A stretch of 64,000 nt of DNA from an uncultured Parachlamydiaceae bacterium (GTDB lineage Bacteria; Chlamydiota; Chlamydiia; Chlamydiales; Parachlamydiaceae): the NCBI GenBank assembly GCA_963752155.1, contig CAVVXH010000011.1, positions 96,001 to 160,000 of the forward strand, given 5' to 3'. Positions within the stretch are counted from its first letter, which is position 1. Every line of letters begins with the position of its first letter. Of the stretch, positions 26,840 to 29,260 are shown one piece after another. Both the position numbers and the translations under genes were made by a program. The notes under the pieces are model-generated. The model saw only the letters and a program-made list of their open reading frames with translations, made no database searches and was not told the origin of the DNA.

Positions 26840-29260
26840 ATGAAGACTAACAGATTTTTTCTTTTTAGCATAGTACTACACATTATTGTAGGACTCTTGC
26901 AAGGTGACTTAATTCAACCTTTAGATACAGCTGAAAATCTTTTTAAGGCAACCTTATTCAACAAAGCAATTCCTGTCTATACCGAGATCTTAAAGGCCAC
27001 TGAAGAAAATCAAGCTCAGCAAGAATTCATCAAATACAGGCTAGGGCAATCCCATTACTATCTCAATGAGTTCGAAGAAGCTCACGCCTATTTTAACTCG
27101 ATCAATTATACTCTTTTGAAGAGCTCTCTAGAAGAACCGAATCTTCTTGCTGACCACCTGCCAGCCATTACCTGCCGCCAACTAAAAAAATATCAAAAAG
27201 CCATTGAAATTCTATCTGAACAAGAACCCCTTACTCACCAAGCGCATTTTGAGCTTGCACTCAATTACTTCTTATCAGAAAACCACTTTTCTGCCAAAAA
27301 TGCTCTCAAAGAATTAGAAAAAAAATGCAAAAATGAACCTCTTCATACTTTAGTGCAATTTTACCTAAGCCGCATCAGCATTATCCATGGTTGTTATTCT
27401 GAAGCTTCAGAACATCTTAATAACCTTAAAATTCCCACTAATGATCCTTTGCTACTCGAATTGGCCTATTTGCATGGAGAAATTGCCTTCCACACACATT
27501 GTTATGAATCAGCCATTCAACACTTTACTCAAGCACTTCCAAAACGTAACTTTGAACACGCTGCATGGACGTGTGATACTCTCTACTATCTTGGATGGAG
27601 CCATCTAAAAATAGCCGATGATCAATCTCAATCCTTAAACCTAGAAACGGCAGTTCAAGATGATAAAGTGATGCAAGATTTTGAGTTAGAATTGCTTCTG
27701 ATGGGGGGTGATCATTCCCAAAAGGTGAAGGCGCCCCCCTTCAGAAGCGATTATGGTTCAAAAGATTGCGTCAATTTATCGTCTTCAACTGCCATTTCTA
27801 GGTTAAATGACCAAAAGTTCCATTTTGACAAAGCAGTTGAAGCGTTTTCTCAACTTCGGCAAATCAAGCCCACAGAAAAAACTCATTTGGCTTTGGCCCA
27901 ATGCTATTTAGCCAAAGGGGTACGCTTTAATGAAAAACAGATGTTCTCCCTTGCTGAAGAGATCCTTTCCGATTCCCAGAATTTTACGACTCCAGAAGCC
28001 CAATCTCACGCACTTCTCTTGATTACAGAGATGTTGGTTGGCGACGCTCGGCTAAACCTCGAAGCGACCTATCACTTTAAAAAGAATAACTTTAAGAGAG
28101 CTGAAGAATTCTTCAACTGTCTTGTTGCCGAGTATCCACACTCTCAATGGTTGGACGAAGCTCTCTATTGGAGTGCCATTTGTGCAGAAAAGCTTAAAAG
28201 AGAGGATAGGGTTATCAAAGAGACTCGCAAAAAGCTGTTTGAAGAGTATTCAACGTCTCCACTTGCAGCTTCAGCCTACTTCCAATACTACAGCTACCGC
28301 GAGTACCTACAGAGCGATCGAAATGCTATCAAGCACTTAAAAGCTTTCAATACAAAATTTCCAGACTCCCCTTTACTCATCAATGCCCACCATTTGATCG
28401 GTCTAGATTACAAAAGAGATCGGAAAAGTTCTAATGAAAAGTTCTTAAGCAAAAAAAATCTAACAAAAGCGATTGCTACATTTTCCAAAACTGAGCAACT
28501 TTTTGACACATTCTACGATCGAAATCTTATTCCTCAGGATCAACTGGAACATTATATAACTATACGTTACAGGGCCATGCTGGAACGTGCGATGGCCAAT
28601 CAAGCTATAGCAGAGAGTTCTCAGGGTGCTAAACGTGAAATCTACTTTCAATACGCTCAGAAACTGTTCATACAAATCAATCAAGAATTTTCAAAGGGCT
28701 CCTCTCTTGCTATCTACCTAACTCACGCGCAGCCTTTTCCAAAAATCCAAGAAGAATGCCTCTACCGCCTTATCCAAAGCTATATTAAAGTGCAAAACGA
28801 TGCAGATGCTGAACGGTATATCGACTTCATGATTGCTAAATACACTGAACTGAATATTTCCAAAAGTTATTATCTTTCCCGCATTTACTATGAAAAGGGG
28901 ATGATCGCAATGGAGCAATCTCAGTATAATCGAGCATGGTCATCATTTATGTTAGCAGAAAAACATGGCGGAGAAAATCTACTGAGCACAGACCAAAAAC
29001 TAGATCTATGGATTCAAGAGAGTGAATGTTGCAAAGCCCAAAACCTTACAGATAAGGCCATGATGATTTTATCAAAAGTCATCAACGATAATACTATTTC
29101 CAGCCTACGTGTCAAAGCGATGTACCTGCGCGCATCCATCTATGCTATGCAAGGGCGACACGACCTCGCTCGCAAGCAGTTAGCTGCCACAGCAACAAAG
29201 GGAGGCGAATGGGCTCTCAAAGCAAAACTAAAATTAGAAGAGGATTATGGATTACAGTAA
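26840..29260 (+). CDS. Secreted TPR-repeat protein (CT744-like by synteny) carrying an in-frame 56-aa palindrome-derived insert
   Basis: Signal peptide, many TPR-like helices (YRLGQSHYY, YYLGWSHL, ALYWSA) and position next to hctA. Confidence 0.85.
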   Translation: MKTNRFFLFSIVLHIIVGLLQGDLIQPLDTAENLFKATLFNKAIPVYTEILKATEENQAQQEFIKYRLGQSHYYLNEFEEAHAYFNSINYTLLKSSLEEPNLLADHLPAITCRQLKKYQKAIEILSEQEPLTHQAHFELALNYFLSENHFSAKNALKELEKKCKNEPLHTLVQFYLSRISIIHGCYSEASEHLNNLKIPTNDPLLLELAYLHGEIAFHTHCYESAIQHFTQALPKRNFEHAAWTCDTLYYLGWSHLKIADDQSQSLNLETAVQDDKVMQDFELELLLMGGDHSQKVKAPPFRSDYGSKDCVNLSSSTAISRLNDQKFHFDKAVEAFSQLRQIKPTEKTHLALAQCYLAKGVRFNEKQMFSLAEEILSDSQNFTTPEAQSHALLLITEMLVGDARLNLEATYHFKKNNFKRAEEFFNCLVAEYPHSQWLDEALYWSAICAEKLKREDRVIKETRKKLFEEYSTSPLAASAYFQYYSYREYLQSDRNAIKHLKAFNTKFPDSPLLINAHHLIGLDYKRDRKSSNEKFLSKKNLTKAIATFSKTEQLFDTFYDRNLIPQDQLEHYITIRYRAMLERAMANQAIAESSQGAKREIYFQYAQKLFIQINQEFSKGSSLAIYLTHAQPFPKIQEECLYRLIQSYIKVQNDADAERYIDFMIAKYTELNISKSYYLSRIYYEKGMIAMEQSQYNRAWSSFMLAEKHGGENLLSTDQKLDLWIQESECCKAQNLTDKAMMILSKVINDNTISSLRVKAMYLRASIYAMQGRHDLARKQLAATATKGGEWALKAKLKLEEDYGLQ
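27635..27807. mobile_element. In-frame palindromic insertion (RPE-like): 163 bp plus a 5-bp TTAAA duplication
   Basis: CCTAGAAA..TTTCTAGG termini at 27640-27802 forming an imperfect full-length hairpin; TTAAA at 27635-27639 and 27803-27807; 168 bp equals 56 codons. Confidence 0.9.

Follow-up and report, generated by a model that had tools for sequence, protein, structure and literature searches.

The window analysed here is a 64,000-nucleotide stretch of one contig from the genome of an uncultured Parachlamydiaceae bacterium. A gene for a TPR protein in this window contains a palindromic element flanked by short direct repeats. The features of the locus are as follows, with positions in the window and strand:

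26840-29260, + strand: host gene, coding for an 806-aa TPR protein, directly upstream of exbB and exbD
27635-27639, no strand: left target-site duplication TTAAA (family target consensus W-T-N-A-W)
27640-27655, + strand: left 16-bp terminal inverted repeat, CCTAGAAACGGCAGTT
27640-27802, + strand: fully palindromic MITE of 163 bp, CCTAG...CTAGG
27714-27728, + strand: central 15-bp dyad (element positions 75-89), its left half decayed
27787-27802, - strand: right terminal inverted repeat, with one private change
27803-27807, no strand: right target-site duplication TTAAA
27638-27805, + strand: 56 inserted codons, residues 267-322 of the host ORF

A 163-bp hairpin between TTAAA direct repeats had been predicted from the letters alone, and was borne out at 27635-27807. 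The two 77-nt arms of the window palindrome (27632-27708 and 27734-27810) show 81% complementarity, and the + strand of the element is predicted to form a single hairpin (-100.1 kcal/mol, z = -16.7), with none of 200 shuffled sequences as stable. The element (163 bp) and the duplication (5 bp) together make 168 bp or 56 codons, in agreement with the original prediction of an in-frame insertion adding 56 aa. An Rfam scan gave three weak matches, all far under the gathering scores.

The host protein matched TPR families alone in a Pfam scan, the genes downstream code for ExbB and ExbD, and the TPR gene is present as a single copy in this genome. A protein search with the host (7995 candidates scored) returned 61 proteins. 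Besides the query itself and 28 full-length orthologs, these were 31 proteins unrelated to the host and one distant TPR protein. An alignment with orthologs had been expected to open a 56-aa gap, and in the protein alignment 12 of 12 aligned orthologs are gapped exactly at the insertion place. The original prediction would have been contradicted by orthologs that all carry the segment together with the lack of any other genomic copy. Instead, the 56-aa peptide matched none of the 28 full-length orthologs, with a single chance match (E 5.9), and this genome holds nine full copies of the element. In both genomes of the same genus the TPR gene is present, the matches are broken at the insertion place, and no element is found.

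The insertion in the TPR gene is real and recent. An assembly artefact, or an ancient native segment of the protein, is barely conceivable as an alternative. No read or contig examined spans the junctions; a small share of two DNA sequencing runs contained element pieces with other flanks and two host-gene pieces of 151-153 nt, and no piece from these runs crosses the junctions of the window insertion. Opposed to an artefact or a native segment are the clean duplication, the five private differences of the window copy from the genome consensus, and the element-free orthologs, including the broken match of the same-genus gene at this place.

The eight other full copies in this genome are 92.5-96.5% identical to the window copy, and several truncated copies are present in addition. 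The nine copies have unrelated flanks, and the 5-bp duplication is exact in seven and has one mismatch in two. The window copy is the most divergent from the genome consensus, with 5 private differences compared with 1-3 elsewhere. The peptide had been expected to turn up in unrelated proteins, and all 31 unrelated proteins from the host search carry it, matching over about 7-17% of the TPR query. These carriers were found by a + strand peptide query, and thus share the frame by construction. Their precomputed or source names and families include RecB, SucA, PutA-like, ComEC, PFP and MurE/F-like, and further MenD, TilS, PriA, TraG and ABC transporters. When the carriers TilS and MenD are aligned to solved structures, the match breaks off at the insert and is picked up again beyond it.

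The family is present in 13 of 61 related genomes, this genome included, and absent from both same-genus genomes; a survey of the phylum at E 1e-15 found it in at least 15 of 400 genomes. This patchy distribution, together with 80-91% identity across genera, suggests horizontal movement. A blastn search of plasmids with the element gave no match. Copies were pooled and deduplicated by flank, which gave 184 copies, and the 5-bp duplication was exact in 162 of the 182 that could be scored, with the target consensus W-T-N-A-W. The family thus shows the attributes of a MITE, having terminal inverted repeats without a transposase, a target duplication, dispersed copies and empty sites in relatives, with an autonomous partner bearing the same ends in other genomes.

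The CCTAG end and the 5-bp AT-rich duplication resemble those of IS1380 elements. Members of the IS1380 family are 1.5-2 kb in size, have ends that begin with CCT, and produce a duplication of 4-5 bp. A PF13701 search of five genomes gave matches in two, here called G021 and G023, which also carry many MITE copies. The transposase gene of G021 (539 aa) has ends with 3 mismatches from the MITE 16-mer on both sides; compared with the MITE ends of G021 itself, these IS ends are different at 3 of 16 positions. With the G021 transposase as the query at E 1e-30, 8 of 401 genomes gave a match, and a MITE-type end lies near the transposase in 9 of the 11 loci returned. IS1380-like transposase genes bounded by MITE-type ends occur in G021, G023, G185 and others, G185 having a complete IS element of 1717 bp. 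The left end of the window element has 1-3 mismatches to the ends of the chlamydial IS1380-like elements. Partial matches in this genome, G016, G027, G049 and G021 were also considered as IS ends, and were truncated or internally deleted MITEs where examined.

The partner transposases scored 77 bits against PF13701 (cut-off 34.7), and their best NCBIfam match was NF033539 (IS1380), with E about 1e-41 and 143-144 bits against a cut-off of 180. The nearest annotated relative, at 44% identity, is on the Polaromonas plasmid CP087967.1, within a complete IS of 1630 bp that has TTAAA on both sides. The right end of this IS is identical to the MITE 16-mer and to the left end of the window element, CCTAGAAACGGCAGTT (16/16), and its left end agrees at 12 of 16 positions. 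A 234-bp MITE with the same ends lies about 360 bp from the IS on the same plasmid. With lengths of 1630 bp (with the TTAAA duplication) and 1717 bp, the partner IS elements fit IS1380 in size, ends and duplication. Searches of this genome by PF13701, NF033539, protein search and tblastn found no IS1380-like transposase in an assembly that is 80% complete, and we therefore infer the partner from other genomes.

An IS1380-related transposase likely moves the element in trans. The original prediction missed this mechanism: in its ends and duplication the element corresponds to an IS1380-related insertion sequence. Alternatively, a repeat of REP/RPE type might have spread through recombination or along a single-strand (HUH/RAYT) route, its IS-like ends being coincidental; this would account for a hairpin that spans the whole length, as in REP-like repeats, and for the lack of a DDE partner in this genome. 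Such an origin is nonetheless improbable in view of the 162 exact duplications and of the transposase-coding elements that have the same ends and the same duplication. Likewise, the RPE1 and WPE models (TIGR01045 and TIGR02697) stayed under their cut-offs in all three genomes scanned (this genome, G021 and G023).

We consider it probable that an IS1380-related transposase, acting in trans, placed a copy of this multi-copy MITE in the TPR gene, and that the frame stays open with a 56-residue insert. Because the element and the duplication make 168 bp that are stop-free in this phase, the host frame stays open after insertion of the 163-bp MITE, and its translation would give a protein with 56 additional residues that are probably unstructured. 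The TPR protein would then be made with the insert, and would still work.

The positions of copies relative to genes were examined for 167 copies, 17 of the 184 having short flanks. Copies were counted as genic when at least 60 open codons lay on each side of the empty site. By this definition, 130 copies lie outside long frames and 37 inside, of which 29 read through and 8 disrupt the frame. All read-through copies are in one phase, 24 on the + strand and 5 on the - strand. A null calculated by the same definition from weighted target sites in this genome gave 46% outside, 20% in the open phase and 34% in other phases. The read-through share of genic copies is 78%, compared with 37% expected (binomial p 4e-7), the null being drawn from this genome and most copies from another. 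With non-genic copies as the reference, read-through copies are retained at about 0.52 and disrupting ones at 0.085, so that read-through copies too are about half as frequent as under neutral insertion. One subfamily, apparently mostly of one genome, accounts for 99 of the 151 copies of 163 nt. The frame is open in 99/99 and 28/35 copies of two large 163-nt subfamilies. A Pfam scan of 28 read-through ORFs, leaving out the window ORF, matched 11 and left 17 unmatched, and in three of the 11 the domain is split into two matched stretches.

Changes among copies were counted on a substitution tree of 110 unique 163-nt copies, which gave 547 parsimony changes; the counts are approximate and are inflated by recombination between copies or arms. 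The coding phase showed 141 synonymous changes (136 expected), 392 non-synonymous (385 expected) and 14 nonsense (25.5 expected). The same phase on the opposite strand showed 12 nonsense changes compared with 23 expected, and there was no deficit in the other four frames. The shortage of nonsense changes together with neutral amino-acid changes therefore points to a filter for open frames, without selection on the peptide: the frames appear to be filtered for openness while the amino acids drift. The pattern parts two ideas that are often merged, selection for an open frame, which is seen, and selection for the peptide, which is not. Copies would persist since insertions with an open frame are purged less, rather than through any usefulness of the peptide. 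The earlier proposal that selfish DNA creates new peptide sequence stands as regards a multi-copy mobile element in frame; the amino acids look unselected, and the peptide is thus better described as filler.

The same data bear on the idea that the peptide or the RNA hairpin has a selected function of its own, as a folded module or as a signal for RNA processing or stability, which we think unlikely. Among 22 selected copies, 34 of the 64 pairs show compensatory changes, and on the coding strand Watson-Crick pairs changed to G-U more often than to A-C, both on internal (34:8) and on terminal branches (57:27). In the subfamily that is open on both strands, genic copies on the + and - strands number 16 and 4 (p 0.012). 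However, the G-U bias is weak when counted by position (40 vs 29), and copying of DNA from arm to arm gives the same covariation and is an adequate alternative to an RNA function. The ratio of synonymous to non-synonymous changes equals the neutral expectation, and both strands serve as coding (24 and 5). Searches of Pfam, NCBIfam (E 0.1) and Atlas gave no match to the peptide, and a promoter and terminator scan of the element found no promoter-like and no terminator-like site.

Copies within genes of this genome are not uniformly harmless. Six of its nine copies fall within host frames, and each of the six is in the open phase. Two of them are at N-termini, in an HlyD-family gene and a PHP-family gene, where a downstream start may bypass them. 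Among the four deep-interior copies, three (C9:13176, C5:32797 and C1:52815) show an insertion or deletion of 1 bp within the element by which the host frame is split, compared with none of the five other copies (Fisher p 0.048). Judged by sequence, the products of the three split genes resemble a heptosyltransferase, an ABC ATPase and an Hsp70-like protein. In the background of this genome, frame changes were found in 2 of 63 gene loci (17,663 aa), two more flags being neighbouring paralogs. The three indels may reflect genuine decay, or may be assembly errors at hairpins and G-runs. Of the deep copies in this genome, just the one in the TPR gene still has an open frame.

It is accordingly conceivable, though doubtful, that the same MITE crippled the TPR gene by its in-frame insertion, and that the gene is an early pseudogene whose frame is not yet broken. 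The excess of frameshifted deep copies over the background agrees with this, as does the divergence of the window copy from the genome consensus. After residue 400, the host protein also lacks about 89 residues relative to the three closest orthologs (88-89), and has 72-180 fewer than all 12 aligned orthologs; however, orthologs that lack the element also differ by about 100 residues in this central region. The C-terminal half of the host shares 70% identity with the nearest ortholog, and the 2.4-kb frame is intact, single-copy and in place upstream of exbB and exbD. In other genomes, 28 of 28 open-phase copies read through, and the carriers from the separate protein search include proteins annotated as RecB, SucA, TilS and MenD.

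For a MITE translated as part of a working TPR protein, the predicted structure indicates where the insert would lie. The AlphaFold2 model of the host, built from 29 sequences, has a mean pLDDT of 87.5, with confident flanking helices. Insert residues 267-312 have pLDDT <50, a value expected whether the segment is disordered or not, as zero aligned rows cover the insert; they lie between helices 244-260 and 315-342, the second of which is prolonged by the last inserted residues. The loop between TPR helices proposed at the outset is consistent with the modelled position between two helices and with the mostly low-confidence coil; what is tolerated there would be filler with unselected amino acids.

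To examine how far such elements extend, a species-level genome collection was scanned for the pattern of two ends 120-145 bp apart. The scan found 125 loci, from 14 of the 64 parts of the collection, and their record titles name Chlamydiae, Gammaproteobacteria, Nitrospirae, Acidobacteria, Magnetococcales, Bdellovibrionota, Verrucomicrobia and others. Elements with these ends extend beyond the chlamydiae. The loci fall into 29 clusters of 154-175 bp with unrelated interiors, and 93 of the 125 have an exact 5-bp duplication.

A dyad, TCACC-N5-GGTGA, was found with at most one mismatch in 21 of the 29 cluster representatives, mostly starting at positions 75-77; shuffled representatives gave a mean of 0.08 and a maximum of 2 (200 shuffles). 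Of six left ends of chlamydial IS elements, five also have the dyad, starting 98-100 bp inside; in the Polaromonas IS it starts at 77 and lies across the annotated start codon of the transposase (UUZ66186.1). In the window element it is at position 75, the exact centre, with 3 mismatches to TCACC-N5-GGTGA; one half is decayed in the family of the window, 38 of 49 copies having 3 mismatches. Because the dyad lies both at the centre of the element and in IS left ends, the element may have arisen by the head-to-head fusion of two IS left ends, with the dyad at the junction (163 = 74 + 15 + 74). The dyad could be a site for the transposase or a host factor, or a mere remnant of a hairpin over the transposase start.

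A length that preserves the frame, counted with the 5-bp duplication, is found in 17 of the 29 clusters (naive p 0.005, the clusters being non-independent). Read-through genic copies make up 14 of 49 in the chlamydial cluster, compared with 1 of 55 in the next seven clusters. We tentatively suggest a cross-phylum superfamily of MITEs mobilised by IS1380-type transposases, defined by two 16-bp ends and a dyad about 75 bp inside that the transposase or a host factor would need. The chlamydial branch would then be a perfect fold-back of two left ends, its length and stop-free phase shaped by selection to survive in genes. If so, no earlier palindrome that invades proteins as RPEs do would have had a defined enzyme, and the system could be reconstituted from the plasmid of a cultured bacterium.

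Rickettsia palindromic elements RPE-1 to RPE-3 were reportedly described by Ogata in 2000 and 2002. According to the accessible parts of several papers, they are multi-copy palindromes of ~150 bp found in frame in unrelated genes (PMC10969869, PMC3767692, PMC3733652, PMC1458961), and their sites are common to rickettsial orthologs (PMC3767692). The window palindrome is slightly longer at 163 bp, and is likewise multi-copy and in frame in 31 unrelated proteins; as far as those parts describe RPEs, insertion in exposed regions and an intracellular host lineage are also shared. In contrast to the RPE sites as described there, the window insertion is absent from same-genus genomes. The 16-bp IS-type ends, the 5-bp duplication and the candidate transposase are further differences; no transposase is named for RPEs in the same parts. 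The element appears to work like an RPE without being one by sequence. The original view of a chlamydial RPE analogue is thus upheld for an in-frame palindrome in unrelated genes, with translation predicted from the open frames, and fails for sequence relatedness to the RPE1 and WPE models.

IS1380-family insertion sequences include ISEcp1 and ISPme1, as seen in part of one paper (PMC9330008). The partners described here are like them in having a DDE transposase of 530-540 aa, a length of 1.6-1.7 kb, a CCTA start and 5-bp AT-rich duplications. Unlike ISEcp1, their transposases are just about 21-22% identical to it and score under the NF033539 cut-off; the ISEcp1 copy examined is interrupted by IS1, which removes its left end from the comparison. 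The window element differs from an IS1380 IS in being a non-autonomous, fully palindromic derivative. ERIC/RU-1, YPAL/RU-2 (about 168 bp) and RUP are described in the source sections available to us as MITEs fused in frame with genes (PMC3184786, PMC10969869, PMC2759123), and in-frame MITE fusions as such are already known there (PMC3184786). They share with the present element its non-autonomous nature, terminal inverted repeats, target duplication and occasional in-frame fusions, but, as far as these sections go, they have other ends and another transposase family; genic read-through amounts to 29 of 167 copies here. REP/RAYT repeats are 20-40 bp hairpins with a GTAG or CGTC tag at one end, according to the portion of the source available (PMC3733652), unlike the 163-bp window element with its symmetric CCTAG ends and 5-bp duplication.

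A full-text literature search, with ISfinder and subscription papers outside its scope, found no paper on the element or on IS1380 MITEs in chlamydiae. The main texts of a large MITE census (PMC11602168) and of PMC3184786 contain no occurrence of 'Chlamyd' or 'IS1380', and the census supplements may hold the family. Protein-invading palindromes are known from Rickettsia and Wolbachia, with no enzyme named for their spread in the parts of the sources available. Beyond the insertion itself, the features tested here are a cross-phylum dyad at a fixed distance from the end, a cultured strain with a candidate enzyme, and the separation of openness from peptide selection. An RPE-like element for which IS ends, the target, a conserved internal dyad and candidate transposases can be named, with one such transposase encoded on the plasmid of a cultured Polaromonas strain, makes the movement and tolerance of protein-invading palindromes testable at the bench. 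A 56-residue insert shared in this way also leads to spurious matches between unrelated proteins in database searches.

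MITE copies occur in tandem or directly adjacent to one another at three places:

Protein P0030, residues 443-558: tandem or adjacent MITE insertions
Locus L042, 2888-3131: tandem or adjacent MITE insertions
Locus L205, 1201-1533: tandem or adjacent MITE insertions

In such insertions, the target duplication of the first MITE copy is the landing site of the second, and in P0030 the frame remains open through two consecutive copies. Genome G023 (loci L005, L017, L024 and L042) contains a 162-nt MITE subfamily with an in-frame TAA alongside the 163-nt open subfamily, for which it provides a natural non-coding control. 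The IS1380-like transposase of this genome (L031/L051, G023:C28) is interrupted on its 5' side by other genes, which, judged by sequence, look like an IS66 element.

The genome containing the window (G000) carries three genic copies in each of which a 1-bp indel splits the host ORF:

G000:C5:32797-32960 (L331): MITE in open phase, inside a gene; 1-bp indel
G000:C9:13176-13337 (L330): MITE in open phase, inside a gene; 1-bp indel
G000:C1:52815-52978 (L332): MITE in open phase, inside a gene; 1-bp indel

The left arm of the C1 copy is partly converted to right-arm sequence. Two short copies with internal deletions (G000:C7:11813-11872 and 15366-15427) have identical upstream flanks in inverted orientation, spaced by about 3.5 kb, and may both belong to a bigger unit that is duplicated or composite.

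Plasmid CP087967.1 of a cultured Polaromonas strain carries both element types:

L327, 527-2156: complete IS1380-like element
L329, 145-378: 234-bp MITE close to the IS1380-like element

The two share the same ends and dyad, and the MITE is similar by eye to L098 and L113. Copies L118, L122, L135, L145 and L175 come from a metagenome-assembled record titled 'Chlamydia trachomatis', a title that alone is not evidence of presence in the pathogen.

The gene order around the TPR host (window 25621-31135) is:

Minus strand: histone-like Hc1, CT_584-like gene
+ strand: TPR, exbB, exbD, 274-aa ORF

The 274-aa ORF had no Pfam match; our guess is that it may encode a TonB-like partner. After residue 400 (window about 28037-28042), the TPR ORF lacks 72-180 residues relative to all 12 aligned orthologs (88-89 relative to the three closest). 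This shortfall, separate from the MITE insertion, may be a further lesion or a shortening particular to the lineage.
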